A DNA stretch of 18,694 nt from Promethearchaeota archaeon (lineage in GTDB: Archaea; Asgardarchaeota; Lokiarchaeia; Sigyniarchaeales; SOKP01). The stretch's first letter is position 1; every line of letters starts with the position of its first letter. Location of the stretch: positions 1 through 18,694 of the forward strand of contig JAEOTS010000166.1 of NCBI GenBank assembly GCA_016839745.1, given 5' to 3'. The notes below the pieces were generated by a model. It was not told the DNA's origin. It searched no databases and worked only from the letters and a program-made list of their open reading frames with translations. Below, piece after piece: positions 1 through 17,896 of this stretch. The translations under genes and the position numbers were made by a program.

Positions 1-832
1 ATCCGATAAAAGGCGCATCTTTTGGATCAATAGGTTCTTTCGAGTATACATCTATACAAGCTCCTCCAATTTTATTGTTTTTTAGCGCGTTATATAGTGC
101 TTGTTCATTTACAACTCCTCCTCGGGCGACATTAACAAGTACCGCAGTAGATTTCATTTTTTCGATCTCAGAATAACTAATTAGATCTTTTGTTTGAGCG
201 GTTAAAGGAACGTGAATCGTAATATAATCTGATCGAGCTAAAAAATCGTCAAAATTATCCAATAACTCAACCCCTAAATCTTGACCACGCTTTTTTGGAA
301 CAAATCTATCAAACGCAACAATGTTCATATTAAATGCTTGACATTTTTTTACAACGGCGGCTCCTATATTTCCTAATCCAATAACTCCTACCGTTTTCCC
401 TTGTAACTCATAACCCCTTAAGAGTTTTTTATCCCATTTACCTTCACGCATTGAACTGTTCGCTTTATAAACATTTCGGGCAAAATTTAACATAAGACCT
501 ATTGTGAGCTCAACAACCGCATTAGTATTGCCTAAGGGAGTTATTAAAACAACAATACCATGTTTATTACATTCCTCAATATTTATGTTATCGTAACCAG
601 TTCCAGCTCGAACAATAACTTTCAATTTTTTCCCCTCACTAATTACATCCGGAGTGATTTTAGTAGCGCTCCTAACGATAATTCCATCGAATTGCTCTAC
701 AATTTCAAGAAGTTCTTCTTTACTTGTTTTATCTTTGATCGTGAGTTCAAAATTTTTGAATTTTTTTAATATCTCGACTCCTTCTTGAGCTAACCCATCC
801 GAGACCAAAACTTTGTACTTCTTTAATTCCAT
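1..832 (-). CDS. serA: D-3-phosphoglycerate dehydrogenase / D-2-hydroxyacid dehydrogenase (3' end runs off the window)
   Basis: Not in the ORF track; translated by hand: MELKKYKVLVSDGLAQEG...IIVRSATK...RAGTGYDNI...GKTVGVIGLGNIG...IHVPLT...NVARGGVVNE...DVYSKEP. Has the GxGxxG Rossmann motif and the catalytic Arg (ARGG) and Glu (EP). An alternative in-frame ATG lies at 838. Substrate specificity is not certain. Confidence 0.85.
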   Translation of the reverse strand, partial: MELKKYKVLVSDGLAQEGVEILKKFKNFELTIKDKTSKEELLEIVEQFDGIIVRSATKITPDVISEGKKLKVIVRAGTGYDNINIEECNKHGIVVLITPLGNTNAVVELTIGLMLNFARNVYKANSSMREGKWDKKLLRGYELQGKTVGVIGLGNIGAAVVKKCQAFNMNIVAFDRFVPKKRGQDLGVELLDNFDDFLARSDYITIHVPLTAQTKDLISYSEIEKMKSTAVLVNVARGGVVNEQALYNALKNNKIGGACIDVYSKEPIDPKDAPFIG

Positions 833-1026
833 AATCATTCATACCCATTATAGCAATTAACTTTTAATTCAACGCTTATTAGAAATAAATACTGTAAATT
901 TATTATCTTTTCGTATCAAATATCTAGTTTTATTGAGACCTTATCTAGTCTTGCTCCTAATATAATATTAAAAAAATGAAAAAAATATGTGAAAACGCTT
1001 TATAATAAGAAATAGATATAGAATTT

Positions 1027-1063: not shown

Positions 1064-2422
1064 TTAATAAAATTCGCAATCTTCAAGTATCATAGATAGA
1101 TCTATAACTGGCAAATCTGGTTTTGTTTGACTGGCAGCTAAATGTAAATTATTCTTACAAAAGACACAAGCGCTAACTAAAACCTCGGCTTCTGATTCGA
1201 TTGCTTCCTTTAAACGGTCTTCGTTAATGTTTTCCCAGCATGCTACAGTTTCGTCTAAGCGATTGCTAGCAATATCAAGCGAGATTTCTCCGTATAAAGC
1301 TCTTACTCCGCCACCCGCGCCACAGCATAACGACATTTCTTTGTTATGTTTCATCTCTATGAACTTAACGCCTTCGATCATGTTCATTAGCTCTCTTGGC
1401 TCGTCGTAAACACCACAATATCTTCCCAAATGGCAAGGATCGTGATACGTAATAATCATTGGGTCTTCTTTTGTACGCTTCGTATATCTTATTTTGAGTC
1501 CCTTTTGTTTTACGATTTTAGGAACGAATTGAACCAAGTGAGAAAGTTCAAAGGGAAGTTCTCCAACAAATTGAGGATATTCAGTGGTAAACGTAGAAAA
1601 ACAGCCAGCGCAAGAAAAGACGAGTTCTTTAACTCCTAACTTTTGGATCATCTCAGTATTATATTTAACTAATTGAACAGCTTCGTCTTCTAGTCCCGTT
1701 CGGAACATTACCGACCCACAACAATATTCATCGGGAAAAACGATGAACTTCACGCCTAATTTATCTAAAATTCGACAAGTTGCTGTGCTTAACTCATTAT
1801 TACGATACGAACTTGTACAACCTACGAAATAACCAACTAAATGCTCATCTATATCGCTTGCTTTTAATTCTCCAGATTCTATTTTTCTAGTATGTTCTAC
1901 TCCTCGTTGGTAAGCGTCATATCCTTCTATACAAGTTTCCGAATCACACCAGGTATATCTATCAGTTCCATCTTCGAGAAATGGATTTTTATTTGTTAGT
2001 ATCGAGTTTTTTAAGATTGCCAATTTTTCAGGTAGAACCCCTTTACGCACGGCAGTTCTTCTGTAATTTTGAAAAACTTCTAATGTATCGATTCCTACCG
2101 GGCAAACGGTCCTGCAATGGCCACAAAGCATACACTGATAGAGCGAAGGAATGATATCTTCTTTATTGAAATCAATCTCCCTTTTAGATAAAGCCTTGAG
2201 GATTCTATTTCGTCCACCAGCATAATCTCTTTCGGAAAAAGTTACATTATACACTCTACAAACGTTACGGCAATATCCGCACTGAATACATCGCTCGTAA
2301 TCTTCGTCAGTTTTATATCCAGGATCAACTAAATTCTCTTGATCTGGCGCAAACATGGAAGAAACTGTAGGACCAGTCGTTACTACTTTTTCAACATCAT
2401 TACTTACTTTTTCATCACTCAT
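1064..2422 (-). CDS. Fe-S oxidoreductase, GlcF/HdrD-like (2x[4Fe-4S] plus two CCG domains)
   Basis: Cluster motifs CIQCGYCRNVC and CMLCGHCRTVCP. CCG domain 1 is GC...YCCGS...SCAGC and CCG domain 2 is YHDPCHLGR...CCGAGGG...ACVFC. SD GAGGT lies before the ATG. Confidence 0.9.
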   Translation of the reverse strand: MSDEKVSNDVEKVVTTGPTVSSMFAPDQENLVDPGYKTDEDYERCIQCGYCRNVCRVYNVTFSERDYAGGRNRILKALSKREIDFNKEDIIPSLYQCMLCGHCRTVCPVGIDTLEVFQNYRRTAVRKGVLPEKLAILKNSILTNKNPFLEDGTDRYTWCDSETCIEGYDAYQRGVEHTRKIESGELKASDIDEHLVGYFVGCTSSYRNNELSTATCRILDKLGVKFIVFPDEYCCGSVMFRTGLEDEAVQLVKYNTEMIQKLGVKELVFSCAGCFSTFTTEYPQFVGELPFELSHLVQFVPKIVKQKGLKIRYTKRTKEDPMIITYHDPCHLGRYCGVYDEPRELMNMIEGVKFIEMKHNKEMSLCCGAGGGVRALYGEISLDIASNRLDETVACWENINEDRLKEAIESEAEVLVSACVFCKNNLHLAASQTKPDLPVIDLSMILEDCEFY

Positions 2423-2450
2423 TTTTATTTTTACCTCTATTCAATTTTTT

Positions 2451-3917
2451 TTAGGCTGTTCTGTATAATCGTTTCGCTATCCAAAAAAGGAGTCCGACGC
2501 GCCAAGTTCTCATTTTTGCTTTCACTAATCTATAAGAGTTAACGAGATCTTTGGGGTCTAATTTATTTTTCAAATTTAATAAGTACGCTGCTTTTTCAGG
2601 GTTAAACCTAAGAAAATAGAATGTGTTTACTACACCTAGGGTGTATAAAATGTCTTTATTTTCGTAGTTGTTTATTGTAATATCGTTAAAAACTGCTTTA
2701 ATTCCGAAAAATTCTCGAGAGTTTTTAATATCCGAAAGACCAAATAGTTTAACTCTATTCCCTCCTTTAGCTCCAGACATTAGATAAAATGCGTGTCGAT
2801 ACCGTTGCCTAGAAGTTTTTTCCTGGTAAAAGTCGTAAAAATCTTCAACTCTATCATCTGATACCCAATATTCTTGAAAAACGAGATTTTCACACCATCG
2901 TCCAACATTTAATTCAGTATCAGCTATGTCACGCCATTTTTCCTTTAGGTACCATTCCTCAACACTAAGTCCGTCTAATTTTGAAGCTGATTCTTTAGCA
3001 AATGAAACGCTCTGGGAGGTCGCATTAGGATTGTCAGAATATACTGCATAGACAAAATAAGCTCGAGATGGATAAGTCCAGTGAGCATACTTCTCAAAAT
3101 GTTTATCAGAAAGCGAAAGGAAAAGCGGTTTGTTTGTATCGCTATTTTTCAGAGTTCGAAAAAACTCAATTGCCATTTTAAATGTATTAAAGCTGTATCC
3201 TATCATTTCCATTGAAGTTTTAAGAGTAGTTACTTCTAATTCTACTTCAGCAACAGCACCAAATATACCAAAAGAGCCTATGATGTCATCAAGTGATAAA
3301 TCTCCTTGAGAATCCCGGGATATTGTCTCTGTAGAGCCATCAGGCTTCACAAAAACAACAGATCGTAATACATCCTTCATTATTCCGTTTTTCAAGACAC
3401 CAATTCCTACTTTACCGCTAGTAGCGACAAATCCGCTAACACAACTAGCCCTATAGCTAGTTGGATAACATTTTGGAGCTAATCCGTAGTCGAGAAGTTC
3501 TTCAATGAGTTTCTGCCACGCAATTCCTGCATCGCATTTAACAATCATGTTTTCCTTGTCAATTTTGTGTACATTGTTCATTCGTCGCAGATCAATTATT
3601 ACACCCCCTTTAGTAGGCGTGGAAGCTGAATAGCACGAAGTTCCCGCGGCTCGTAGGGTTACAGGCATTGAATATTGGTAGCATTTTTGCATTAATTTAG
3701 AAAGCTCTTCGGTGTTGCCAGGACGAATTACATGAGTGGCTTGATATTCTTCTTTAAACTTATAGTGATACTTCGATAACAACGAAAGATCACCGGAAGT
3801 TGCTTCAATCTCGTATCGATCTGTGCTTACGTGGGGGGAGGGTATGAATTCTTCTACTTCTTTTGTAAAATTAGTCTTTCCAATTTCTTGTTTTTTTTCA
3901 ACTTTTGTTTCATTCAT
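2451..3917 (-). CDS. FAD-binding oxidoreductase, GlcD/D-lactate dehydrogenase (PCMH/VAO-type) family
   Basis: Motifs RPGNTEEL, VTLRAAGTS, GGVIIDLRRMN, CVSGFVAT, IGSFGIFG and C-terminal KLDPKDLVN. The track's GTG at 3929 lies inside the SD GAGGTGA, so the ATG at 3917 is the likelier start. Confidence 0.85.
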   Translation of the reverse strand: MNETKVEKKQEIGKTNFTKEVEEFIPSPHVSTDRYEIEATSGDLSLLSKYHYKFKEEYQATHVIRPGNTEELSKLMQKCYQYSMPVTLRAAGTSCYSASTPTKGGVIIDLRRMNNVHKIDKENMIVKCDAGIAWQKLIEELLDYGLAPKCYPTSYRASCVSGFVATSGKVGIGVLKNGIMKDVLRSVVFVKPDGSTETISRDSQGDLSLDDIIGSFGIFGAVAEVELEVTTLKTSMEMIGYSFNTFKMAIEFFRTLKNSDTNKPLFLSLSDKHFEKYAHWTYPSRAYFVYAVYSDNPNATSQSVSFAKESASKLDGLSVEEWYLKEKWRDIADTELNVGRWCENLVFQEYWVSDDRVEDFYDFYQEKTSRQRYRHAFYLMSGAKGGNRVKLFGLSDIKNSREFFGIKAVFNDITINNYENKDILYTLGVVNTFYFLRFNPEKAAYLLNLKNKLDPKDLVNSYRLVKAKMRTWRVGLLFWIAKRLYRTA

Positions 3918-3930
3918 TTTCTTTTTCACC

Positions 3931-4548
3931 TCAAAAGTATAAGGGAGGAACGGGAAGTTCTAATAAGAGCCCTAAAAGAAAAGCGCCCCACCAACCGGCT
4001 AAGGTAAAGTATCCAGTCAACCTAGCGAGATTTCGTTGTCCAGAAGCCCCAAATAAGAAGCTTGCGGAACCCGTCATCAAACCAAAGGCTCCGAGAAATA
4101 TATGAAGCACATGGATCATTCCGGAATAGTTAAGTATTTCCAATGGAGTCAAGAATACTAATAGAATAACATTTATTATTGTAACTATCAGAGCCCCTCC
4201 TGCACAATATCCGTGCCATAAAACATATTTCGCCTCGTCGTATAAGACAAGAATTGTGCCAATCGATAATGAAATTAATGCTGGCAAACCTAGAATTATA
4301 CCTATATGCCAACTACCAAAATTTGGATCAAATCCAGGAGATTGATATTCAACTAGTCTAAACGGAAATATTTCAATGCCGTTCAATACGACTATTACAG
4401 TCATCAAAGTTCCGAATATGATCGCCATAATCCATATTAGAACTTTTTGCGTACCTTTTTTTCTAAAGTTCAATATTAAAATCAATGCTATAAATATTGC
4501 AACAGCTGCAACGGATAGTAATATTTGTATTTCAGGTGTTATTACCAT
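3931..4548 (-). CDS. Membrane protein (~6 TM), DUF420/CtaM-like or cytochrome b-like His-containing helical bundle
   Basis: Intramembrane His81, His112, His146 and His149. The LHIFLG...ARLTGYFTLAGW...LLG segment resembles the DUF420 C-terminus. Its stop overlaps the SD of the FAD oxidoreductase, and it lies directly downstream of ctaB. Confidence 0.5.
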   Translation of the reverse strand: MVITPEIQILLSVAAVAIFIALILILNFRKKGTQKVLIWIMAIIFGTLMTVIVVLNGIEIFPFRLVEYQSPGFDPNFGSWHIGIILGLPALISLSIGTILVLYDEAKYVLWHGYCAGGALIVTIINVILLVFLTPLEILNYSGMIHVLHIFLGAFGLMTGSASFLFGASGQRNLARLTGYFTLAGWWGAFLLGLLLELPVPPLYF

Positions 4549-4658
4549 ATATCTTACCTTTTTTTTTAAATTAGTTTATGATTAAATTTTAAATATTCAA
4601 TATTATCATTTATGATAATAAATAAAGATTTTTATTGTAAAATAGAAAGTAAGACGAG

Positions 4659-5543
4659 TTATATTAAAAGAACACCTAAAAACACTAATAAAAATCCAAG
4701 GATCATATAGAGAGAAGCAATCTTAAAAATGAGGAATGTGAGCTTATTTGAGGGTTTTATTAAGTTCTTTATTACTAAAATTATTATTAAAACGCAACAA
4801 ACACCCCAAATGATTCTTATAATTGCGTTTGCGCCTAGCAGTCTAGCAACTTCGTAAAGTGCTATACTGCTGATGAATGCTCCAATAGCGATAACCCGCA
4901 TGGTTTGGGCTTCCGAACTTACTATTGGCCACATAGGAACTCCCGCATCCTTATAACCTTTAAAATTTCGTGGTATTAATGCTATTGTGAGGATGTGAAC
5001 GGGAATCCAAGCTAAAATGAATATAAGAAATAGGAATCCAATCCAATCTAAGGTTCCGGTAATCGCTACTCTACCAGCCCAGGCGGGAAGACCACCCGCA
5101 ATTCCACCAAAAATTATGCTATATTTAGTTCTTCTTTTTAATAGTATGGTATATATTACAACATCGAAGAAAAAACCGAAAAATATAATTACAGCTGCTA
5201 TCCAATTGAGCGTTAAGAACGATAGAAACACTCCCACTACAGTTAACACTATTCCTATTATAAGGGCTATAGAAGGGGAAATTTTACCAGTTGGTAATGG
5301 GCGTTCCTTTGTTCGTTCCATGATCGCATCGATATCTCTGTCAATATACATATTTAATACGGTCGTACCTGATACGGCGAAATATAGCGATATTACCAAA
5401 TGTAATAGGTTAAACCAATTAATCTCAGCGGCATTGCTAGCTACCGTAATTAAGTAAGACAAAACTCCAGTGTAAACTAAAAGAATAGTCTGTCTTGCTT
5501 TTATTAGATTTCCAAAGAGAGAGAGTAGGTTTTTTAGGTTCAA
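4659..5543 (-). CDS. ctaB: Protoheme IX farnesyltransferase (heme O synthase), UbiA family
   Basis: Signature motifs LNMYIDRDIDAIMERTKERPLPTG, YTILLKRRT..SIIFGGIAGGLP, WIPVH and YKDAGVPM. TTG start. Confidence 0.93.
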   Translation of the reverse strand: MNLKNLLSLFGNLIKARQTILLVYTGVLSYLITVASNAAEINWFNLLHLVISLYFAVSGTTVLNMYIDRDIDAIMERTKERPLPTGKISPSIALIIGIVLTVVGVFLSFLTLNWIAAVIIFFGFFFDVVIYTILLKRRTKYSIIFGGIAGGLPAWAGRVAITGTLDWIGFLFLIFILAWIPVHILTIALIPRNFKGYKDAGVPMWPIVSSEAQTMRVIAIGAFISSIALYEVARLLGANAIIRIIWGVCCVLIIILVIKNLIKPSNKLTFLIFKIASLYMILGFLLVFLGVLLI

Positions 5544-5593
5544 TCTATCTTCAACAAAATAGTTGTTATTTGGAATATTTTCCTTATTAGGAG

Positions 5594-5601
5594 TTTATAA
5601 G
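5594..5601 (-). promoter_or_regulatory. Probable TATA box (CTTATAAA) for ctaB
   Basis: About 50 nt upstream of the start. The identical octamer recurs at 10484-10491 and 12089-12096, upstream of other minus-strand genes. Confidence 0.5.
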
Positions 5602-5649
5602 TTAAATTAAAAATACCATTTAAAATTTTATTTAGATAAAAATAAGCAG

Positions 5650-5671
5650 AAAAAAAAGATTAGAAAAAAAA
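5650..5671 (-). terminator. Oligo-T tract after protein A
   Basis: Two 8-nt A-runs on + just past the stop at 5683. Confidence 0.45.
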
Positions 5672-5682
5672 TTTAATAGATC

Positions 5683-7215
5683 TTAAACTGTCTTTTCGGT
5701 CAGAATCTGGGGTTTAGAAGCTGGTCCTCCGTGACGAGTTGGTGGCAGCGTTTTTACATTTTTACCAAGCGCGTACAATCCGATGACAAAACCTACTAAG
5801 AGAAACCATACTCCTATAAATGTAACAGTCCTAAAGAGTTCAAAATTTTCCAATGGTAAAGGACGTACCATATGCATCATTGCGAAAGGAAATGTTAAAT
5901 TAAATCCGATAAAAAATATCCAACCTAGGATTTTTTTTAATCGACCTTTAACCTGGAAAAAGTCAATAGCGTGTACCATCAACGCCACAGCGATCATGAC
6001 TGCCAATTGATGCCAATGTGCTACATTAAAATTATATTCCAATGTTACCATATCATGTAATCTATAATATTCGTCTGTAGTAAGCCCAACATAGATTTGA
6101 GGGAAAACTAAAAGTTGTGCTATCATAAGAAGATAATAATATGACATCTTTACAGGTTCACTAAACAAAGCTCTAATCTTTTGTCCGCGCGATGCATCTC
6201 GGTAATCGTCTCCAAGTTTATCTTTAATAACATTCTTCAAGCCAATTATTGACATAATTAATGTCCCAAGGATCAATAAACCAGCACCCACCCATATTAT
6301 ATAGTGGTTTAGAACCCAAGCACCATAAGATAATGTTATAACGCCAATTGGAGTAAACAATAAGATATATCTAAAAATCTTACCTCTCATTTTACTCGTA
6401 CGGAAGGCAACCAACATAACCATAGCTGCTGATTGAGCTAGCTGTATGTGAAGGTGACCAACTATCATGTCTTGGACGATATCGTGATGTCCCCCAAATG
6501 TAATACCTTTTCTAATGATTGCTTCTGCCAAGAACGCAATAGGCTCACGGCCTAGACCCCAAATAGTACCCGTAAAGTTTTCAATGGCGGAAAGGGCTCC
6601 GTATATTGCTGAAACCATAATGCATATCGCTAGAACTACAAGGTTGAAATACTCTAAGTTCAATCCACGGAATGTAGATCCTCTTGGATTGTGTTTAGGA
6701 AATCTACCTTTCACTGGCCAAGCTGAAATAATAAACACTATTCCACCGATAAAAACCAACAGTAAGCCGAAAGTGAAAAGTTCGTGGAAAAGTCTAATAC
6801 GTGTATAGGCAAAAAGCATTCCGTTTATACCTACGATAAACGCACTAGGTACTAAAAGAATTTTTAAAGTTGGAAGCAACTTCGGACGGATTTCGTAGTG
6901 TTCTAATATCCAGAATACGTTCGCTACAAAAAAAGGTAAAGCTAACGAGTGATATATCATGACAAGACGAGCTGTTCTTGATATTACGTCGTCGTTAAGG
7001 AAGAAAGGCCAGATCGGCTCTCCCCCTATTAGAACAGTCAAGGGTTCGGAAAATGTCATATACCATAGAACTTGAATAAAAACGAATACGAACAAAACAT
7101 AATGTATCTTCTTAAAACTCGTTTGTATTTCAGGTTTCATCTCCTGCGTTTCCATTGAGGATTCTCGACCAGTTTGCATTGGGACTGTTTCTGTTTCTAT
7201 TTCTATTTTTAGCAC
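5683..7215 (-). CDS. Protein A: 12-TM heme-copper-oxidase-subunit-I-like protein lacking canonical CuB/FeB ligands
   Basis: Twelve hydrophobic segments. His occur in helix II (YH89SLALP), IV (FH144EL), VI (GH254LH256) and X (VAH400WH402). Helix XI WIFFIGFNLTFP resembles COX1 FxGVNLTFFP. The exact start is uncertain. Confidence 0.65.
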   Translation of the reverse strand: MLKIEIETETVPMQTGRESSMETQEMKPEIQTSFKKIHYVLFVFVFIQVLWYMTFSEPLTVLIGGEPIWPFFLNDDVISRTARLVMIYHSLALPFFVANVFWILEHYEIRPKLLPTLKILLVPSAFIVGINGMLFAYTRIRLFHELFTFGLLLVFIGGIVFIISAWPVKGRFPKHNPRGSTFRGLNLEYFNLVVLAICIMVSAIYGALSAIENFTGTIWGLGREPIAFLAEAIIRKGITFGGHHDIVQDMIVGHLHIQLAQSAAMVMLVAFRTSKMRGKIFRYILLFTPIGVITLSYGAWVLNHYIIWVGAGLLILGTLIMSIIGLKNVIKDKLGDDYRDASRGQKIRALFSEPVKMSYYYLLMIAQLLVFPQIYVGLTTDEYYRLHDMVTLEYNFNVAHWHQLAVMIAVALMVHAIDFFQVKGRLKKILGWIFFIGFNLTFPFAMMHMVRPLPLENFELFRTVTFIGVWFLLVGFVIGLYALGKNVKTLPPTRHGGPASKPQILTEKTV

Positions 7216-7311
7216 CTTTATTTGTTTACTAGATTAAAAAAAATATTTTTTTACTAATTAAATACATATTGATTAATATATCTTTTGCTTAAGTTTGCTA
7301 AAAACCTTACG

Positions 7312-7351
7312 TTGTTAAGAATATCTTAACAATAGAATATCTATTCTATTG
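7312..7351. promoter_or_regulatory. Two overlapping perfect inverted repeats, putative transcription-factor sites
   Basis: TTGTTAAGA-ata-TCTTAACAA (7312-7332) and CAATAGAATA-tc-TATTCTATTG (7330-7351), about 100-135 nt upstream of protein A. Confidence 0.55.
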
Positions 7352-7487
7352 AATAAAAATTTGATAATTCGGATATAGGATAAAATAGAGTTTTTTGTTT
7401 ACTTAATATATTATGATTAATAGACATCTGGAATAAATTGTGTGAATTTAGTAAATTAATATTAGAAAATTAGTAGATGTCATCAAT

Positions 7488-7508
7488 AAAATAAAAAGAA
7501 AAAAAAAA
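7488..7508 (-). terminator. Oligo-T tract after the 7-TM gene
   Basis: Long A-run on + downstream of the stop at 7541. Confidence 0.45.
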
Positions 7509-7540
7509 TTTTTGCAAAAATGCTTTTTGATTATTTTAAA

Positions 7541-8290
7541 TTAATCTTCTAATTCGATTCCTGGAATTGCAAAGTTCCATCTTTTAGGAACGAATGTTCC
7601 CCAAGCAAAACATAATCCAGCTCCAAGGTAGACGAATGGAAATACATTAAAGACTATTAGTAAATATTCGTCAGTCGCAAGAATACCAAGGGTTGCAAGA
7701 GCTAAGAGAACTCCGACGAGACCCATTAGAACACCTGCTAAAGTCATTGCCAGTGCTGAAATTCCGTTTTCTTCTCTCGTTTGTAATGGAAGCCAAATTA
7801 TTAAAATTGCACTTGGAACGTGTAAAATCATTACTAAAATCGGTACAACTAATGCGGGAACGACAATCACTGTAGCTAAATTCTCAAGTTCAACAAGTTT
7901 AAAGAATCCTATTACGAGGGACATAATAACAACATAGTATAATAGGTAATTTCCCATTTTATCCTTTTCAGGCTTCACATTTTTAAATAGACCTACAGCA
8001 AACAGTCCTACCATTAATGCGTATAAAGTTGCTGGTACAGGATCTAGGAAAGTCGTGAAACTTCCACTAAATATAGCTACGTGAGTATTTATCCAAATCA
8101 AAGTGAAGGAAATACCCCAATATAAATGCGCAGGTTTCCTAGTAGTGAGATAGGAAGACAACAGAAATAACGCGAAAATAATCGCGACAATAGCTACCAT
8201 CCAGAATGCAATTTCGGCTACCTTTCCACTTCCAAAGTAAGTACAGAAATCCCACGGAGTATCCGGACAAGCTCCTTGAAATAACACCAT
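7541..8290 (-). CDS. Hypothetical 7-TM membrane protein
   Basis: Seven hydrophobic segments and an N-terminal CPDTPWDFC. The track's GTG at 8302 is part of the SD-like GAGTGA, so the ATG at 8290 is preferred. Confidence 0.75.
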   Translation of the reverse strand: MVLFQGACPDTPWDFCTYFGSGKVAEIAFWMVAIVAIIFALFLLSSYLTTRKPAHLYWGISFTLIWINTHVAIFSGSFTTFLDPVPATLYALMVGLFAVGLFKNVKPEKDKMGNYLLYYVVIMSLVIGFFKLVELENLATVIVVPALVVPILVMILHVPSAILIIWLPLQTREENGISALAMTLAGVLMGLVGVLLALATLGILATDEYLLIVFNVFPFVYLGAGLCFAWGTFVPKRWNFAIPGIELED

Positions 8291-8506
8291 TTTTGATATC
8301 ACTCTTTTTTTATATTTTTTTTTATAATTTAATTTATTAATTATTTAAAAAAGTTTTTTTCGATGTTTTTTTTAAATAATAGTTACTATTAGAAAGATGG
8401 TTCTATATAAAAGTTTGTTGTCCACTTTTTTCCCTTATGTATTAATGTGAATGCTTATTCATTAGCACGATATATTAGAATAAAATTACAGCAAAAAAAA
8501 TGAATC

Positions 8507-8514
8507 TTTATAAA
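8507..8514 (+). promoter_or_regulatory. Probable TATA box (TTTATAAA) for the + strand membrane protein
   Basis: Consensus archaeal TATA in a divergent intergenic region. A minus-strand counterpart (TTTTATATA) lies at 8404-8412. Confidence 0.4.
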
Positions 8515-8596
8515 TAAGATTGTATCCTACTATATAATCAATAGAATTTTTTCTATTTGTTTAAAAAAATTTATAAAAAAAAATATAAAAAAAAAC

Positions 8597-9367
8597 GTGG
8601 TGTTAAAAACGCGGATAAAAAGATCTGAATTGATTTTTAATCTTATTATAATAGCTCTTTTTGCAATAACGGCGAGTACTCAACTTTTAAGTGCTTATGG
8701 GGCTGTGTGTGTAACGTACAATATTCCTACTGGTAGGCCTTCTCCACCCTTTCCAGCAGGCGAAACATGGTGGAATGTGTTCGCTTATGCGGAAGCTTTT
8801 GCTGGGGTTTATATACCAATGAATATATTAACCTGGATTTTAGCATTCGCTTGGGGCTTTCTAATTTACGCCTATATTACTAAATGGCCTTGGAAGCGTT
8901 TCTTCTTAGTAGGTGTTATTGTAAGCGCCTTAGGATTCATTAGTGGAATTATCCCCGCAATAATATCAGATACTGGCGGATTTACGGCAGATTTTGATTT
9001 TGGTTCACCTCATTGGGGACGAACAATGGCAAATGCGTTAATGTTAGTTATACTTCTTCTAATGAATTTTGTGCCAAGGTTAAATATAGCAACCAAAAAA
9101 TTTGTCGAAGAACGCAGTGTAGCTGGACAATACATAAAACAATTAATATACATGTCCTTATTTTTCTTCTGGTTAGGAGCCGCTTCATTCCTTGGAACAA
9201 CTTTCATGGCAGACGCTCATCTAGTAAACGGACTTAACGTTTGGCAAACTATTGAGATCCAATTTATTGGTGGTGTAATTACATCAATCATTGGCGCTTC
9301 AATGTTGTCAACCGCTTTAATTTACAGTCAAATTCGACCTTCATCAGCACTGATAAAGACTAAATAA
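8597..9367 (+). CDS. Hypothetical ~6-TM membrane protein
   Basis: Long ORF with six hydrophobic segments and the motifs GSPHWGRT and DAHLVNG. It is followed by a strong oligo-T tract. Confidence 0.75.
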   Translation: MVLKTRIKRSELIFNLIIIALFAITASTQLLSAYGAVCVTYNIPTGRPSPPFPAGETWWNVFAYAEAFAGVYIPMNILTWILAFAWGFLIYAYITKWPWKRFFLVGVIVSALGFISGIIPAIISDTGGFTADFDFGSPHWGRTMANALMLVILLLMNFVPRLNIATKKFVEERSVAGQYIKQLIYMSLFFFWLGAASFLGTTFMADAHLVNGLNVWQTIEIQFIGGVITSIIGASMLSTALIYSQIRPSSALIKTK

Positions 9368-9403
9368 GAGTAGATAATCCTAAAGATATTATTAAATGTA
9401 TAA

Positions 9404-9433
9404 TTTTTTTTCTTTTTTTTCTTTTTTTCTTTT
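9404..9433 (+). terminator. Oligo-T terminator
   Basis: About 30 nt of almost pure T, 36 nt after the stop at 9367. Confidence 0.65.
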
Positions 9434-9705
9434 ACTTTGTTAAAAATTAATTGGAGATATTCATTACACAATTAAAGTCGGATTAATTCTGAACTACTTG
9501 GTTTTGTCGAAATACATCAAAGTTAATTGAAAGAAATAGCTTTAATTTTTAAGTGTTAATGGGTTAATTATTTAGAAATTAAACATGAAGCATTTAATAT
9601 CAACAACTACTTTTTTGGATCTAATTAATGCAATCCAATTCTAACTAAAATTAAATTAATAGATAATACAAAAAGAAAACAGTTAAAAAAAATGTTTTAA
9701 TTTGT

Positions 9706-10404
9706 TTAGTGCTTTTCTTCTGTTAATTTTGGTGCGTTCTTTTGACCTAACTTCGGTAAGGTAAAAAGTAATGCAAATACTATGATCGTCGAGATAGTTG
9801 CAGGCATCGCTGCTTCAGCGAAGGTTAGATGTGGGTTATAGTAAGGTAGTCCAACGTAATAATGCTCGGTTAGGACTCCCCCGAGAGAACATTTAACAGA
9901 TACAGTAATATTAGTCCGACCTTCACCTAGATATGGTACTATTTTTCCGGTATTTTCGTCAAACGGTGGATCATCTATCAGTTCTCCGGTTTTCTGGAGT
10001 CCTGGCAAAGGAAGAATATATATAGGTAGTGTGTGTGATGTAGTAATCTCACTCACATTAGTTGGTTGTTTAGAAAACGCATGATGGTTTGTTTCGTTGA
10101 ATGTGTATGTAGGCGCTTCTGTAGGAAGTATAGCAATAGCATAATTATCCTGATCATCGAAATATCTGTGATGATGATGATCTTCCCACACTTGTGTGAC
10201 ATTAACCCACACATCTATCTCGTATATATAGTGATACTCAGGATCCGAAACTCCGTGGGTAAGTCTAATGCTAAGTTCTTGCGCACCTACATCATATTCT
10301 AAATCTATATTTATAGGAGCATGCGCGTTCACGTTTAGAAAGCTCATCGTAATGCCGAGAAGCAGAAAAACGGACAAAGCGTAAAATATTTTTTTCTTTG
10401 ACAT
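9706..10404 (-). CDS. Exported, C-terminally membrane-anchored His-rich protein with a superoxide-reductase (neelaredoxin)-like ligand pattern
   Basis: Signal peptide ending VNA|HAP. Candidate ligands are H28, H50 (THGV), H58 (HYI) and C172 (CSLGG). Also an HHHH insert, four N-x-S/T sequons and a C-terminal hydrophobic helix. Confidence 0.55.
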   Translation of the reverse strand: MSKKKIFYALSVFLLLGITMSFLNVNAHAPINIDLEYDVGAQELSIRLTHGVSDPEYHYIYEIDVWVNVTQVWEDHHHHRYFDDQDNYAIAILPTEAPTYTFNETNHHAFSKQPTNVSEITTSHTLPIYILPLPGLQKTGELIDDPPFDENTGKIVPYLGEGRTNITVSVKCSLGGVLTEHYYVGLPYYNPHLTFAEAAMPATISTIIVFALLFTLPKLGQKNAPKLTEEKH

Positions 10405-10581
10405 TTTTATTCGGTTTTTTTTTAAATTTTAAATTTATGATTTATTTAAAATAGTTAAGCAATTTAATATTTTTACTTTTTCATTTATAAGAATTATAAC
10501 TTAAATACACTTTTTCCACATTTTAATCCCATATAGATAATTTTTGCTTATTGTTTGATTATAGATTGAGTTTCTAAGAAT

Positions 10582-10591
10582 AAAAAAAAAA
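10582..10591 (-). terminator. Oligo-T tract after protein B
   Basis: A10 run on + downstream of the stop at 10611. Confidence 0.4.
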
Positions 10592-10610
10592 GATGGATTT
10601 TTTAATATAA

Positions 10611-11963
10611 TTATTCGATGACGAACGGAATAATGTCTTCTGAAAATTTTTCCCGTTTAAATATTGCTTGGTAAACGAATAAGGCTAAGAAGAGAAGTAG
10701 GTCAAAGAAGAGAAGGAAAAAACCACCGAAAATTATATGGGTTAAAGTCGTTTCGCCAGCGACATCGAGGGGCGATCTTAAGAAAAAAAACGCTGCTGCA
10801 GGAAAGACAATAAAAAGACTTGCAAACAAGGTCCATCCAAACACCTTCCGTAATTTGTTTTTGGGTACCATGTTGTGTATAATTATACTGAAGACTACGA
10901 TAGCACCGAGAGTAATAAGTACATGGGGGTGTCCGGTAGCAAAATTGCGTTCAACAGGGTAATTCAAAATATTTCGATATGCTTCAAGGTCTGTAACAAT
11001 CAACAGTCCTGGTATTACTATAATAAACCCTGATAAAAAGTAAGTAATGAACATGCTCAGTCTCAAAGGATTTTTTAATACTGCAATAATTTTAGAACCA
11101 ATAGAGGAGGAACCGTAATCAGAACCGAGTTCTTCTTTTGATACTTTTATCCAACCGTCAAATGCAATTATTACGCCTGTAAACAAGATAAACGCCCGCG
11201 CGGGCATTAATATTGCATTCGCTGCTTTACCCATAACTAACATGAGGAAATACCCAGCTGTCATGGCAATAACACCAATTAATAGCAACCAAAGCCCAAT
11301 CTTAGCGAATTTACCTTTAACTCCTGTGTATCTGAAAGTAAGAATCAACACTCCAGTTAACAATAGTGCGTTCATTAATCGCATGTGAAAACTAGCGAGT
11401 TCTTGGAATAATTCTTTGGGAGTTCCCCGGAACAACACATACTCTACCTCTACTAAGAAGAAAGGCTCGTCAATTTCCAGCATTATAACCGCAGCAACAG
11501 CTCCGAATATTGCGAAGACGATCATGCTTCCTATGACAATTACAGCACTTAGATGTAGGATATTAAAGCCACCAATTTTAGGAATATCCCGATAATATTC
11601 GCTTTCTTTTACTTCTTTTCCAGGAATAAGGCCGTAAACTAGTAATACGGCACAAACAAATAAGAGACTTAACCCAACCAGAAAAAGATGATGTAGAAGA
11701 AAAAGATCTGTATAAGCCCAAAAAATAGCACCGATTCCCCCACAGACTCCACCTAGTGCTGCCGTATACTTAATTAGTTTAATGACTTTCGAGCGCATCT
11801 CTATTATATCGATAAAGAGCAGCGAGACAATCCCAATAAATGGTGTTGACATTGAGTGATATGTCATAATTACTTCATGGGCTTGGTGATGAACATCCGG
11901 CATCAAATAATGAAATGAAAACGCTACACCAAGGTTCACTACGATAATTATTGCTAATACCAA
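10611..11963 (-). CDS. Protein B: 12-TM paralog of protein A (HCO-subunit-I-like, no CuB/FeB ligands); may start at 12002
   Basis: Ungapped matches to protein A: MTYH36SMSTP vs MIYHSLALP; AYTDLFLLH91HLF vs AYTRIRLFHELF; FQELASFH193MR vs VQDMIVGHLH; YR...ERNFATGH345PH347VL vs YR...EYNFNVAHWHQL. Confidence 0.65.
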   Translation of the reverse strand: MVLAIIIVVNLGVAFSFHYLMPDVHHQAHEVIMTYHSMSTPFIGIVSLLFIDIIEMRSKVIKLIKYTAALGGVCGGIGAIFWAYTDLFLLHHLFLVGLSLLFVCAVLLVYGLIPGKEVKESEYYRDIPKIGGFNILHLSAVIVIGSMIVFAIFGAVAAVIMLEIDEPFFLVEVEYVLFRGTPKELFQELASFHMRLMNALLLTGVLILTFRYTGVKGKFAKIGLWLLLIGVIAMTAGYFLMLVMGKAANAILMPARAFILFTGVIIAFDGWIKVSKEELGSDYGSSSIGSKIIAVLKNPLRLSMFITYFLSGFIIVIPGLLIVTDLEAYRNILNYPVERNFATGHPHVLITLGAIVVFSIIIHNMVPKNKLRKVFGWTLFASLFIVFPAAAFFFLRSPLDVAGETTLTHIIFGGFFLLFFDLLLFLALFVYQAIFKREKFSEDIIPFVIE

Positions 11964-12182: not shown

Positions 12183-13421
12183 CTATACTGGTTTAGGATT
12201 TTCTTTTTTATTAAGATTTAAAAATCTTAATAAGATTATAAGAAAAGCAGCAACTATCGACGGTACTATAATTCCCAACATTAAGGCTGCCTGTTCAGTG
12301 TAGAAGTCGTAAACATGACCAGAAATTGGCGCACCAATGGCTACACCAGCAACTATCAGAGCGTAGAATGTTCCTGTTGCTACACCGCTCTCAGAACCTT
12401 TGGTGTTCTCTTTAACAGCACCTGCTGAAGAAGGAAAAATCAATCCATGCCCAAGCCCCAGAAAAACCATTCCTATCATAGGTATTGGAACTTCGAAAGA
12501 AATCATGAATACTCCAAACGCAGATGCAACCAACAATAACCCAATCAGCATTACTTTAGTGTAGCCTATCTTGTCGCTCAGTATACCTGCTGGATAGTGA
12601 ATAAGTATCGAAAAGATCACCATTATGCTCAAAATCATGCCCGTTTGACCAACCGTGTATGCTGCGTTTTCTAACATTAGCGTATATACTGCTGTAACGA
12701 TTCCCATGTTAAACATCATCGCTAATATTGAAAAGTAAGGACTGATCATAGATTTTCGTAAAACTATTTTTCTAAATGTTTTAAACTCTTCTTTAAATGA
12801 TATTTTCTCTTTAGAAGGTTGATAGATCGATGGGAGAAAGAAAGAAGTGAAAGACATAATAAAGAGCACAATTGCCATTATTAAAAACAAATTACTTTCT
12901 CCAATTATTTGAGCAACCATACCTCCTAATAAGAAGCCTATTAAATTTGAAAATCCAATAGATATACCGTATAGTGCCATCCCCCTACCACTCCGTCTTT
13001 GGGTAGTGGCGTCGGAGATATAAGCCATTGTAGCAGGGCCCCCAAAACCCCCTCCTATTCCATGAACGATTCTACCAAATAATAAAAATAATGGATCTTG
13101 AGCGATAGCATATAATAACATCGAAATACCGTCTAAAAACACTCCAATGGATATTAACTTATTTCTACCGATTTTATCAACTAATCTACCAAATACTATA
13201 TTTGAAGGGATGTGTACCATGGAGTAAACTCCCACAATAAAGCCTGTAAATATAATTGACGCACCCAATTTCCCCGCATATGTCGCAATAATAGGAATTG
13301 CTGCGTTACTATCAAAATTGACCATAAAAGATAGGGTAAGTATTAAAAAAATATGCTTTCTCTTAATTATCGAGGATTTCTGAGTTTGAGCCTCGGTTGA
13401 ATTTAATAAGTTCTGTGTCAT
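12183..13421 (-). CDS. MFS transporter (DHA1-like)
   Basis: 12 TM. Motif A GRLVDKIGR and its repeat GILSDKIG; also GRIVHGIGGG and RGMALYG. SD AGGTG. Confidence 0.92.
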   Translation of the reverse strand: MTQNLLNSTEAQTQKSSIIKRKHIFLILTLSFMVNFDSNAAIPIIATYAGKLGASIIFTGFIVGVYSMVHIPSNIVFGRLVDKIGRNKLISIGVFLDGISMLLYAIAQDPLFLLFGRIVHGIGGGFGGPATMAYISDATTQRRSGRGMALYGISIGFSNLIGFLLGGMVAQIIGESNLFLIMAIVLFIMSFTSFFLPSIYQPSKEKISFKEEFKTFRKIVLRKSMISPYFSILAMMFNMGIVTAVYTLMLENAAYTVGQTGMILSIMVIFSILIHYPAGILSDKIGYTKVMLIGLLLVASAFGVFMISFEVPIPMIGMVFLGLGHGLIFPSSAGAVKENTKGSESGVATGTFYALIVAGVAIGAPISGHVYDFYTEQAALMLGIIVPSIVAAFLIILLRFLNLNKKENPKPV

Positions 13422-13558
13422 GTATTTTCACACCTAATCTTGTTTTAGGAGTATATTTAGCTATTTGTACAAAAAAGAACTTATCATCAAAATTAAAATT
13501 TTTTATTATAATTACATTATTTTATATATCAATTTTGACTATCTTAAGTGATTCTATC

Positions 13559-13894
13559 ATGAGCCCCCCTAAAAGCCGCTTAGAACAAGAACACAAAACA
13601 ATCAACACTATGATTCGGATGTATTGTAAACGCTTTCATGACTGTGACGATGATTTATGTCAAGAATGCACAGATCTTTTTCAATACGCTGAGGAACGAT
13701 TAAAAGGTTGCCGCTTCGGCGAAGAAAAACCTACTTGCGATACATGTACAGTTCATTGTTATAAACCTGACATGAGGGAGAAAATACGAACAGTCATGCG
13801 TTACGCAGGACCAAGGATGATATATACGCATCCAATTATGGGATTTCGACACTTATTTAAAAAAATGAAAAAAAATGAAAATTTAGAGATCTAA
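13559..13894 (+). CDS. ygbA: YgbA family ('nitrous oxide-stimulated promoter') Cys-rich protein
   Basis: RLEQEHKTINTMIRMYCKRFH...LCQEC..L..YAEERL..C.FGEEKPTC..C.VHCYKP.MREKIR.VMRYAGPRM...HP matches the family consensus. The likely start is the ATG at 13559, not the track's 13397. Confidence 0.9.
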   Translation: MSPPKSRLEQEHKTINTMIRMYCKRFHDCDDDLCQECTDLFQYAEERLKGCRFGEEKPTCDTCTVHCYKPDMREKIRTVMRYAGPRMIYTHPIMGFRHLFKKMKKNENLEI

Positions 13895-13934: not shown

Positions 13935-14756
13935 CTAATTATACAATATTTTAGTCAATTCAACTTCTTCTCCTTTAAGGTACTTTTTAAGCGTATCTTT
14001 TTCATTCATAGAAAATATAGCTACTTCAAGACCTTTTATTATTTGATCTGTTATTGGAACCAGAGAAAGTAATTTACCTCGCATCCTTCCAGAAGCATCT
14101 GCCTTACTTGATTCATCTAATGTTTTTAAAAATTGATCAAGATCATTAATGTTTAATTCTTTGACCAGTTGAGCATTCGTACCTGATTGCGGATCTTGGT
14201 TATACACGCCAGGTACATCAGTTGCAAACATTAAATGTTTAGCATTTAAAACACGTGAGAGTACTACTGCGATTTGATCTCCGCCACAAACACTAAATCC
14301 CATACCAATATCGTACATCATATCTCCTCCTATCAAGGGCACCATCCCTAAAGATAAAAATCCCTTTAAAGAGTCAAATGCGTGATTAGTTATCACCATC
14401 TTATTGCCCACGATCATTGAAGAAGCGTGCATTAGATTTATAGGAATTCCTTTATCTAAAAATTTGGTAGCAATCGTTTTTCGAAGTTCGTTAACGATTT
14501 GTTGCGTTTTTGACATAGAAATTAGTTGTTCTTTATCCTTAAAACCCTTATGAAGGTTGTACCTCAACACAGGAGGATGACCGAAAGAACCCACTCCGTG
14601 GACTATAACTAGGCTCTTGATTAAGCCTAAATCAATACATTCTTTTATTTCAGTAGTAACTGCTTCTAGAACATCTTCTTTTAATGTGTATGGCGTTGAC
14701 TTGTCCGTAAGTAGAGAACCGCCGAGTTTTAAAACTAATATGTCTTCTGATGTCAT
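13935..14756 (-). CDS. ipk: Isopentenyl phosphate kinase family (amino-acid-kinase fold)
   Basis: LKLGGSLLTDK, VHGVGSFGH (IPK-specific His), GD.., ATDVPGVY..DP, and DASGRMRGK (variant of DVTGGMxxK). Confidence 0.85.
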   Translation of the reverse strand: MTSEDILVLKLGGSLLTDKSTPYTLKEDVLEAVTTEIKECIDLGLIKSLVIVHGVGSFGHPPVLRYNLHKGFKDKEQLISMSKTQQIVNELRKTIATKFLDKGIPINLMHASSMIVGNKMVITNHAFDSLKGFLSLGMVPLIGGDMMYDIGMGFSVCGGDQIAVVLSRVLNAKHLMFATDVPGVYNQDPQSGTNAQLVKELNINDLDQFLKTLDESSKADASGRMRGKLLSLVPITDQIIKGLEVAIFSMNEKDTLKKYLKGEEVELTKILYN

Positions 14757-14776
14757 TTAAATTCCTAGAAATTATA

Positions 14777-15580
14777 TTAGAAATTGAAAGCATATGGCCA
14801 AAAATCTGGAAACCCTAACTCAAGTATCAGAATTACAATTACGACCGCCAGAAAAATTGTGAAGTTATCCGTACCCTTAGGTGATAACGCTTCTACCACA
14901 GTAGCAACTATACTGACAACAATTATCGGTAGAATCAGTGTAACTATATTAATATGTGGAACTTCTAGAGAAAAGATCAAGACGAGAATAGAGCTTACTA
15001 ATATCGATCCAACTAGCATCCCGATACTTCCTACAATAGTTTTTTCGCTCCCTTTAATTCCAAACTTTTTTTCTCCGCCAAATTTGCGCCCGATAATGTC
15101 TGCTAACCCGTCTCCACCCGAAACGCACCCAATAATAAGTAATGCTGTAGGGTTTGCGTTATCTATGCCGGTAGACGGTACGTAAAACCAGAAAAAAGTC
15201 ATTAATACCATAACAATTGCATAGTAGAGCGTTCCTCCAAGAAGTTCTCGAGGGTCTCCTGATCTCGACATTGATGCCACAAAACTTTCGTTTTTCATCA
15301 ACCCCGTACCGATCGCCACGAATTGTAAAACAAATAATAACGGAACTATTACAGCAATGTAATGACTAATAACTTCGCCTGTAAAAAGCATCCACGTAAC
15401 AACGAATATAGGTCCCGCAAAAATATGGACGAATTTTCTCGTAATGATTTGAGAAACTTTTCCCTTTTTTTGCATCAAACCATTGATTTGTACCAACGCT
15501 AACAATATAACAATAGAGATAACGGTAGCAATTATGTCCCAAACAAAAGCCAAATCATTCCCAAACGGATTAAAAACCAC
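14777..15580 (-). CDS. Phytol/farnesol kinase (VTE5/FOLK-like CTP-dependent polyprenol kinase)
   Basis: TRKFVHI, SMSRSGDPRELLGGTLYY (close to the plant VTE5/FOLK motif), GDGLADIIGRKFG, KT..GS and VEALS..GTDN. Confidence 0.85.
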   Translation of the reverse strand: MVFNPFGNDLAFVWDIIATVISIVILLALVQINGLMQKKGKVSQIITRKFVHIFAGPIFVVTWMLFTGEVISHYIAVIVPLLFVLQFVAIGTGLMKNESFVASMSRSGDPRELLGGTLYYAIVMVLMTFFWFYVPSTGIDNANPTALLIIGCVSGGDGLADIIGRKFGGEKKFGIKGSEKTIVGSIGMLVGSILVSSILVLIFSLEVPHINIVTLILPIIVVSIVATVVEALSPKGTDNFTIFLAVVIVILILELGFPDFWPYAFNF

Positions 15581-15778: not shown

Positions 15779-16078
15779 TTACATATTTATAATGCTATCG
15801 TTCTCAAAGATTAAGTCAATTACCTCGTCAGAAGCAACCAATCTGATATTATCAGAAATAAACTTATTCAATCCCCGGGTATCTATATGTTCTTTGCACG
15901 CAGCAACCTTCTTCTTTTGATTAAGAGCTTGTGAAATCGCTTTATTAGATTTATTTGCAAAATAAACCGCGTTTTGAAGTAAAAGTATGGTAACATCGTC
16001 ATCATCTGTGTGCTCCATCGCAAGTTCTACTCCTGTAATGTCTTCACTCGTTATAAAATATAAAACTTTTTTGCCCAT
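15779..16078 (-). CDS. dsrH: DsrH/TusB family sulfur relay subunit
   Basis: ILLLQNAVY and EHIDTRGL; 99 aa; third member of a DsrE-fold trio. SD GGAGGT. Confidence 0.75.
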   Translation of the reverse strand: MGKKVLYFITSEDITGVELAMEHTDDDDVTILLLQNAVYFANKSNKAISQALNQKKKVAACKEHIDTRGLNKFISDNIRLVASDEVIDLIFENDSIINM

Positions 16079-16091
16079 TTTTCTTTACCTC

Positions 16092-16436
16092 CTAAAACGG
16101 TATGGTTACGGTTGAATCCGCAATCATTTTTAATATTTCTCCATGTTCTTTCACTTCAACTTTATCAATGAGATCGTCTTTTGTTAAGCCACGCTCGTCA
16201 AGAGATTTCTTGTCAACAAAAATATCTAAATCGATATTTTTAATGAATTCTATGTGCATATCGTACATGGTTTTATCGACATCTTTTGTAAAGGTGTAAA
16301 CAGCGTCGTTAATCGCAATTGTAATCGGATCGAAATCAGCGCTAACAGCAACCGTCATCCTTAACCCTTCAACGGGGTAGAGAGTTCCGTGAGGTGGTTG
16401 CCGTAAAAGTATAACAACATTTTTTTTTTCAGCCAT
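16092..16436 (-). CDS. dsrF: DsrF/TusC family sulfur relay subunit
   Basis: RQPPHGT...EGLR, DAVY, VDKKSLDERGL...DLI and a C-terminal IPF; contains no Cys. Confidence 0.8.
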   Translation of the reverse strand: MAEKKNVVILLRQPPHGTLYPVEGLRMTVAVSADFDPITIAINDAVYTFTKDVDKTMYDMHIEFIKNIDLDIFVDKKSLDERGLTKDDLIDKVEVKEHGEILKMIADSTVTIPF

Positions 16437-16447
16437 TTTTTATCACC

Positions 16448-16810: not shown

Positions 16811-16835
16811 TTTATGATTTCATCTCCTTATCTAC

Positions 16836-17885: not shown

Positions 17886-17896
17886 TTTTTTTTCAC

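Follow-up and report, generated by a model that had tools for sequence, protein, structure and literature searches.

The haem-copper oxidase (HCO) fold has, to our knowledge, so far been found only in O2 and NO reductases. The described systems closest to the one reported here are CcoN of the cbb3-type (C-family) oxidase (structure 3mk7) and NorB of the nitric oxide reductase (NOR) cNOR (4xyd), which share a twelve-helix fold with a histidine in transmembrane helix (TM) 2 and an HxH motif in TM10, the bo3 oxidase with its haem O synthase CyoE, and the flavin/Fe-S dehydrogenases of the GlcDEF, Dld-II/LdhH and HdrDE types. In the literature searched, Heimdallarchaeia are the only Asgard archaea credited with terminal oxidases, and Loki- and Thorarchaeia are regarded as oxidase-free fermenters (PMC6737245; bioRxiv 10.1101/2024.07.04.601786). 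We analysed one complete 18.7-kb contig (JAEOTS010000166.1; 18,694 nucleotides, hereafter the window) of a Promethearchaeota archaeon of the class Lokiarchaeia (GCA_016839745.1), whose genome assembly of 3.53 Mb is 89% complete and consists of 192 contigs. An earlier reading made from the letters alone, here called the sequence-only reading, had pointed to an electron-transfer island with haem-prenylating machinery and no canonical oxidase at 1064-11963. From our analyses we conclude, with moderate confidence, that this island encodes a membrane redox system with a deeply divergent branch of the HCO/NOR superfamily at its core, which would act as a haem O-dependent oxidant reductase and in this lineage would be fed by a dehydrogenase. 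The genes of the minus strand are transcribed in the order major facilitator superfamily (MFS) transporter, protein B, exported His-rich protein (232 residues), 253-residue membrane protein, protein A, UbiA-family haem O synthase (CtaB), 205-residue membrane protein, flavin adenine dinucleotide (FAD)-binding flavoprotein and CCG-domain Fe-S protein; the gene of a 256-residue protein lies on the plus strand between those of the 232- and 253-residue proteins. All genes named in the sequence-only reading were found where it had placed them, on the minus strand, and two conserved genes of the system, at 7541-8302 (minus strand; the 253-residue protein) and 8597-9367 (plus strand; the 256-residue protein), are added here. 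No description of the A family was found in the literature searched.

Protein A (5683-7215, minus strand; 510 residues, 12 TM) is a divergent subunit I-like member of the HCO superfamily. The Pfam and NCBIfam libraries did not match it, the A alignment, run as a profile against PDB sequences, returned no match at E ≤ 10, and the Pfam model of COX1 (PF00115) matched neither A, B or 10 distant relatives nor any other protein of the genome. The fold emerged from an AlphaFold2 model of twelve helices (predicted local distance difference test, pLDDT, 79; predicted template modelling score, pTM, 0.81), which was compared with 48,161 PDB representatives by VIA, with Foldseek run alongside. The best ten VIA matches were all subunit I of HCOs or NORs (Z 14.3-21.7; next fold 9.8), and included the cbb3 oxidase 3mk7_A (Z 21.7 over 392 residues, 3.8 Å), cNOR 4xyd_A (Z 19.8 over 371 residues), the bo3 oxidase 1fft_A (Z 18.4), a ba3 oxidase (Z 17.8) and a qNOR (Z 15.3). 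Among the Foldseek matches listed, to rank 50, all were HCO subunit I. At the level of the model, A is thus shown to have the twelve-helix subunit I fold of HCOs and NORs, as the sequence-only reading had supposed, and the same fold is predicted for B by paralogy. Nevertheless, A is only 9-10% identical to CcoN and NorB, and its island differs from theirs in the lack of CcoO/CcoP, NorC, a cupredoxin subunit and any gene with a CxxCH motif, which is absent from the real open reading frames (ORFs) of the region. The observation that no CxxCH protein, subunit II or haem A synthase is encoded here was borne out, and extends for COX1, COX2 and CtaA to the whole genome, the only one searched for CtaA.

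The pattern of conserved histidines was derived from an alignment of 36 A-family sequences that covers Asgard clades, bacteria and distantly related members. H89 (TM2), H254 (TM6), and H400 and H402 (both TM10) are invariant in all 36. In hhalign comparisons with twelve Asgard COX1 sequences (Prob 63-79%), the H400-W-H402 motif falls on the HxH of COX1 helix X and H89 on the histidine of helix II, and we propose that A would bind a low-spin haem through H89 and H402 and a high-spin haem O through H400. A further likeness to CcoN and NorB is the TM6 histidine followed, 50 residues on, by a histidine in the turn between TM7 and TM8 (H254 to H304), which we take to be also the distance between the helix VI histidine and the helix VII histidine pair of canonical oxidases. 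The canonical CuB/FeB His-His pair of helix VII is itself absent from A, which has instead H254-x-H256 in TM6 and the single H304. H256 and H304 are kept in 32 of the 36 sequences and are lost solely as a pair, which happens in B and two distant members. Because these two residues disappear only together, the sequences suggest that H254, H256 and H304 may form a rewired (permuted) three-His metal site beside the two retained haem sites. To speak of no copper site at all may go too far, since this triad could provide a three-His site.

The TM6 motif of the family is HLHI(Q/M)LA. Like NORs, A is without the Tyr of the HPEVY type in helix VI, and it differs from them in having no NOR-type Glu. 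A tyrosine, Y297, is conserved in the Loki/Thor subclade (subclade 1) but not outside it; we define this subclade by eight loci with an A at least 44% identical to that of the window: the window itself, L001 (Prometheoarchaeum syntrophicum), L003 (a thorarchaeon), L004, L027, L028, L030 and L031. In the other Asgard clades, A is 27-35% identical to the window protein. A global hhalign alignment that laid the His of the COX1 HPxVY motif on H244 of A was not adopted, as H244 is not conserved and local confidence is low. Two further residues of A, E231 and H144 (where TM4 begins on the outer side), are both kept in 31 of 36 sequences and are jointly lost in five distant members; we know of no corresponding ligand in canonical oxidases.

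Transcribed after A, the gene at 4659-5543 (minus strand) encodes a probable haem O synthase of the CtaB/CyoE type (UbiA family, PF01040, E 3.7e-45) with the Asp-rich NxxxDxxxD motif (N-M-Y-I-D-R-D-I-D, residues 63-71); the remaining UbiA paralogues of this genome are lipid-type enzymes. We searched each of 201 Asgard genomes for the A family, COX1 and CtaB, which were present in 35, 13 and 42 genomes, respectively. CtaB was found in 34 of the 35 genomes with A, the odd one out having a weak partial A match, and in at least 25 Asgard genomes no more than about 1.5 kb separates it from A; eight genomes contain CtaB without A, five of them together with COX1. In a CtaB tree of 45 rows, all 20 A-linked Asgard sequences fall into a single clade (SH-aLRT 97), separate from the CtaBs adjacent to COX1, and genomes with both systems have one CtaB of each type. 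The A family is therefore accompanied by a haem O synthase of its own, in Asgard archaea and, as described below, in bacteria. What the sequence-only reading had drawn from neighbourhood is in this case corroborated by adjacency, near-perfect co-occurrence and phylogeny. Locus L042 (G193:C13, 7309-9359) contains a tandem pair of A-linked ctaB genes beside a single A gene. The combination of an HCO-fold subunit with a haem O synthase and no haem A synthase is that of bo3 oxidase and CyoE, and without a haem A synthase the pathway would stop at haem O. The bo3 oxidase differs in its canonical CuB ligands, its subunit II (CyoA) and its quinol donor, and the CtaB of the island belongs to the separate A-linked clade.

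Given an assembly that is 89% complete and spread over 192 contigs, ctaB could in principle serve an ordinary oxidase that was left unassembled, with A and B being unrelated membrane proteins. The distribution of oxidases makes the chance of this close to negligible. COX1 is limited to three families among the 201 Asgard genomes and was found in none of the 40 sampled genomes of the family to which this genome belongs. COX1, COX2 and cytochrome bd were likewise found neither in this genome nor in four congeneric genomes of approximately 100% completeness that carry A and CtaB, so that the canonical oxidase elsewhere, which the sequence-only reading had considered as the possible reason for ctaB, is missing from all five. 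The distinct clade of A-linked CtaBs, the separate CtaB of each system in the dual-system genomes and the HCO fold of A also argue against this explanation.

The same five genomes were searched for the origin of the haem and for quinone synthesis. HemB and HemC were found in none of them, and haem must therefore be scavenged; MqnA and MqnD were not found either, nor was MenA above cut-off. The host thus differs from those of the CcoN, NorB and bo3 systems in being a haem-auxotrophic anaerobe in which no quinone markers or quinone synthesis were found, and in which haem O is proposed to come from a dedicated CtaB. The need for haem import, together with the MFS transporter that recurs by the island, could also be accommodated if A and B were non-redox haem importers, chaperones or sensors. 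We regard this as very improbable, since the combination of one bis-His and one mono-His haem site is the arrangement of a redox enzyme, and since the link to a dehydrogenase and the prenylation of haem fit a catalytic cofactor rather than a cargo.

This link concerns three genes downstream of A. As in GlcDEF, Dld-II/LdhH and HdrDE, a FAD_binding_4 flavoprotein is combined with a protein of two 4Fe-4S and two CCG domains, and their His-rich membrane partner recalls the cytochrome b anchors of the HdrE/NarI type. This partner, the 205-residue membrane protein (3931-4548, minus strand), has four invariant histidines (H81, H112, H146 and H149), which sit in its last four helices, and Pfam has no family for it. 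The label DUF420/CtaM, given to it in the sequence-only reading, has to be dropped, as PF04238 matched neither the protein nor 20 of its homologues at E ≤ 1. We propose that it may bind haem and serve the dehydrogenase as its anchor or wire in the membrane. Kinship with A, hinted at by the UniRef name of one homologue ('Cytochrome oxidase subunit I profile domain-containing protein'), was rejected (hhalign Prob 0.4%). Paralogues of the four-His domain occur in ORFs of about 300 residues elsewhere in Loki genomes, some of which have no A (e.g. G065:C20:17922-18269, G192:C7:48873-49220 and G113:C50:33762-34121).

The flavoprotein (2451-3929, minus strand; PF01565, E 3e-29) begins one base after the gene of the 205-residue protein and is of the VAO/PCMH type. 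Both glcD and LctD match its residues 66-260 only, its relatives in the PDB (LctD, glycolate oxidase and D-LDH) cover only the FAD-binding domain, and its C-terminal half is unlike known substrate domains, with no FAD-oxidase_C domain recognised. Because the match is confined to the FAD-binding domain, the oxidation of 2-hydroxyacids suggested in the sequence-only reading does not follow from these known enzymes. The CCG protein (1064-2422, minus strand; HdrD/GlcF/TfrB-like) matches PF02754 in two stretches (E 1.4e-31) as well as PF13183, and its best match in the PDB is 9ojn_A (1e-33), with HdrB at 1e-9. Every NCBIfam equivalog falls below its cut-off for this protein, and the scores of the module lie far under those of the named enzymes (75 bits against a cut-off of 568 for glcD, 84 against 333 for GlcF). 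A further difference from the GlcDEF and HdrDE types is that the proposed acceptor would be an HCO-like protein, rather than a quinone or heterodisulfide.

The genes for the 205-residue protein, the flavoprotein and the CCG protein lie downstream of A in all eight Loki/Thor loci, in each of which the genes run from the exported His protein through A, (CtaB), the 205-residue protein and the flavoprotein to the CCG protein; the flavoproteins of L001, L003 and L004 are 57-68% identical to that of the window. The linkage noted in the sequence-only reading accordingly recurs throughout this subclade, but it is specific to the clade and not general. In an alternative scenario the dehydrogenase and its four-His anchor are self-contained, in the manner of lactate/glycolate dehydrogenases or HdrDE, their adjacency to A and CtaB being due to shared regulation or co-acquisition, and A is fed otherwise. 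GlcDF-, GlpC- and HdrD-type proteins normally pair with anchors of their own, the window probably comprises separate transcription units, and A and CtaB occur in other Asgard clades and in bacteria without the FAD/CCG pair, all of which would agree with this scenario. We nonetheless consider it unlikely. Strong matches to the 205-residue protein (E ≤ 1e-60) were found, among the 201 genomes, in exactly the ten genomes of families f1 and f2 that have a subclade-1 A; sampled f1 genomes lacking A gave no such match. In L001, L004 and L031 the genes for the His protein, A, the four-His protein, the flavoprotein and the CCG protein follow each other with gaps of 0-18 nucleotides, and no quinone markers were found that would point to quinone as the acceptor of an independent dehydrogenase.

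Protein B (10611-11963, minus strand; 450 residues) is a paralogue of A (26% identity, E 2e-26 in BLASTP) that retains the four invariant histidines and has Arg and Asn in place of H256 and H304. Its orthologue in the thorarchaeal locus L003, in the corresponding position, is 59% identical. Between B and A lies the gene of the exported protein (9706-10404, minus strand; 232 residues, His-rich), which has no match in Pfam and is modelled as an Ig-like beta-sandwich with a signal helix before it and a C-terminal anchor helix after it. In this protein H50, H58 and C172 are invariant and H28 is present in at least 90% of the sequences, and it probably carries a metal site at the outer face of the membrane. 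It is encoded directly upstream of A in L001, L004, L027, L030 and L031. Seven named superoxide reductase chains, together with PH1083 (deposited as hypothetical), were among its top 15 Foldseek matches with marginal E-values (2e-3 to 2e-2), and superoxide reductases head that ranking. Two VIA runs returned generic Ig/FnIII sandwiches (Z about 8) and did not raise superoxide reductase above them, and the protein has Gly where superoxide reductase, whose iron site is made of four His and one Cys, has a His after the Cys. A superoxide reductase-like reading, based on the marginal Foldseek rows and the order of the motifs, is therefore left open.

Of the two genes added to the system, the one on the plus strand encodes a protein of six TM with a conserved Cys after TM1. 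Its homologues stand beside A in 10 further Asgard loci, and it aligns with a 229-residue protein of the bacterial operons (hhalign Prob 99.1%, E 1.8e-18, 194 columns). The 256-residue protein is a partner of the A and CtaB module common to Asgard archaea and bacteria. The 253-residue protein, encoded just upstream of A, is a polytopic membrane protein with no match in Pfam, whose homologues flank A or B in L003, L027, L030, L032-L034, L038, L040, L042 and L044. It was also considered as a relative of the 256-/229-residue family or of the 205-residue protein, to both of which it is unrelated.

The family extends well into bacteria. Searched against 1.84 billion proteins, the A profile recovered just 156 clusters (50% identity), and COX1 had no match in the ten clusters scanned. 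A scan of species genomes showed that at least 471 bacterial species carry an A-like gene, mainly Anaerolineae, with further carriers among Ignavibacteria, Neomarinimicrobiota, Aminicenantes and others. The neighbours were counted at 80 bacterial loci: an FGE-sulfatase lipoprotein directly follows A at 79 of them, a CtaB-like gene is present at 73, a Crp/FNR-type regulator lies upstream at 45, and the 229-residue membrane protein occurs at 40. These operons resemble the island in their A proteins (25-28% identical, with the same invariant histidines), in the linkage to CtaB and in the six-TM partner. They differ in that the FGE-like lipoprotein replaces the His/Cys sandwich, in that the FAD/CCG/four-His module is missing, and in their upstream Crp/FNR-type regulator. 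The FGE protein of unfused bacterial operons has a lipoprotein signal. The distant members P0127, P0192 and P0203 have a fused C-terminal extension, either an FGE-sulfatase domain or PD40 beta-propellers. At 17 of the 80 loci (e.g. L023, 13244-14185), genes for a cytochrome c of seven CxxCH motifs and for a partner of 316 residues lie near the operon.

The constancy with which an exported, metal-type protein accompanies A, be it the His/Cys sandwich of the island or the FGE-like lipoprotein of bacteria, has to be weighed with regard to a different role, in which A and B are transmembrane haem wires leading to a partner at the outer face or to an external acceptor, possibly a syntrophic partner organism. 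In the island the wire would end at the superoxide reductase-like protein; in bacteria it would end at the FGE-like lipoprotein or at multihaem cytochromes, the latter encoded near about a fifth of the operons counted. It would suit this role that B possesses the haem ligands and not the metal pair, and that the hosts are syntrophic fermenters. A plain wire has no use, though, for the conserved and co-varying H254/H256/H304 triad, its fold would be one that we know solely from O2/NO reductases, and the neighbouring genes suggest oxidant stress instead of external electron transfer. We therefore regard this role as quite improbable.

We thus favour an oxidant reductase, for which the following sequence of events can be envisaged. 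Scavenged haem b would be prenylated to haem O by CtaB and inserted into A and B. The cytoplasmic FAD/Fe-S dehydrogenase would oxidise an organic substrate, possibly a 2-hydroxyacid, and its electrons would reach the low-spin haem of A by way of the four-His membrane protein, with no quinone involved. Protein A would reduce a small oxidant at the high-spin haem O beside the H254/H256/H304 site, with O2, NO or a reactive oxygen species as the likeliest candidates, and the exported metal protein would work at the outer face. Protein B may be a relay or a variant enzyme, as two of its three metal ligands are lost. The scavenging of O2 or NO, as put forward in the sequence-only reading, is a possible role suggested by the gene context.

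Several points speak against this proposal. What A reduces, what the dehydrogenase oxidises and which way the electrons run are all inferred. Neither the active-site Tyr of O2 reductases nor the helix VI Glu of NORs is conserved in the A family, so that its chemistry is not assignable. The structural model of A was built on an alignment of 21 sequences, the hhalign register of TM6 and TM7 is of low confidence, and the convergence of H254, H256 and H304 on one site is a prediction from the alignment. The CtaB of the window scores slightly below the curated cut-off of TIGR01473 (207.7 against 210.3 bits; next unrelated model about 50 bits), and its A-linked orthologues lie on both sides of that cut-off (195-225 bits). 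The dehydrogenase module is cytoplasmic, yet the conserved histidines of A are all in the outer half of the membrane, and a transmembrane wire is therefore needed, for which the four-His protein, as a putative haem binder, is the candidate. The link to the FAD/CCG pair was not seen in the other Asgard clades or in bacteria and is thus not intrinsic to the A family; in those Asgard clades the linkage is limited to the 253-residue and/or 256-residue proteins, A and CtaB, and no electron donor recurs among the neighbours of A. Finally, the intergenic spacers of the window (110-325 nucleotides) are AT-rich with oligo-T runs and point to several transcripts, a reservation already voiced in the sequence-only reading. 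A broader interpretation, under which the A family would constitute a third functional class of HCOs, independent of quinone and cytochrome c, using haem O made from scavenged haem, with a permuted three-His site and wired to a dehydrogenase in Loki/Thor, is possible but is held only tentatively, and we rather doubt it.

The genes around the island provide the oxidant-stress context. The MFS transporter (12183-13421, minus strand; PF07690, E 7e-54) has orthologues in the same place in L003, L027 and L030, and L043 has an MFS gene after CtaB; that it imports haem is speculation. Divergent from it lies a gene of the YgbA_NO family (13397-13894, plus strand; PF11756, E 1.2e-42), whose true start is probably later than called, as the Pfam match begins at residue 61. 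YgbA_NO and MFS genes are found together beside the island at four loci (the window, L003, L027 and L030). In Prometheoarchaeum, the island is adjoined by a flavodiiron protein, an oxidoreductase with Pyr_redox_2 and Rubredoxin_C domains (rubredoxin-reductase-like) and a glutaredoxin, and in L004 by Fur and catalase. The Crp/FNR-type regulator encoded upstream of A at 45 of the 80 bacterial loci belongs to the same context. An AA_kinase (IPK-like; PF00696, E 5e-34) and a CTP_transf_1-like membrane protein (PF01148, E 1.3e-4) are encoded as a pair at 13935-15580 (minus strand). The pair recurs near the cluster in distant genomes, at L004 (16802-18470), L027 (2902-4545) and L030 (4671-6325), being separated from CtaB by one intervening gene in L004 and L029, and could provide CtaB with the prenyl diphosphate needed to make haem O.

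The outermost genes of the window are of other kinds. A set of tusA, yeeE (Sulf_transp), dsrE, dsrE/F and dsrH, assigned by Pfam, adjoins the island at 15779-18130 (minus strand) and showed no link to the haem system in other loci. The small-subunit gene of a NiFe-hydrogenase, an enzyme mentioned in the sequence-only reading, begins at 18555 (18555-18692, plus strand) and is 87% identical over 46 residues to that of the thorarchaeal L003, where the hydrogenase is likewise found beside YgbA, MFS and B. Directly downstream of the CCG gene, a NAD-dependent D-isomer 2-hydroxyacid dehydrogenase (SerA/PGDH-like) is encoded at 2-838 (minus strand), a neighbour that is not conserved in L001, L003 and L004.

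If the broader interpretation of the A family as a third functional class is correct, Asgard archaea regarded as oxidase-free, together with hundreds of Anaerolineae, would be capable of O2 or NO reduction by a membrane enzyme. The presence of a conserved HCO-fold haem O system in Loki- and Thorarchaeia bears on how relatives of the ancestor of eukaryotes coped with oxygen, on the early diversification of the oxidase/NOR superfamily and on the scavenging of haem by anaerobes. Prometheoarchaeum syntrophicum, which is in culture and described as a 'strict anaerobe', encodes a homologue 45% identical to A, flanked as in the island by the genes of the His protein, the four-His protein, the flavoprotein and the CCG protein, so that the proposal can be tested at the bench. 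The A family lies outside Pfam and NCBIfam, and its presence in at least 471 bacterial species makes it a sizeable blind spot in the annotation of respiratory potential in sediments, digesters and the subsurface.

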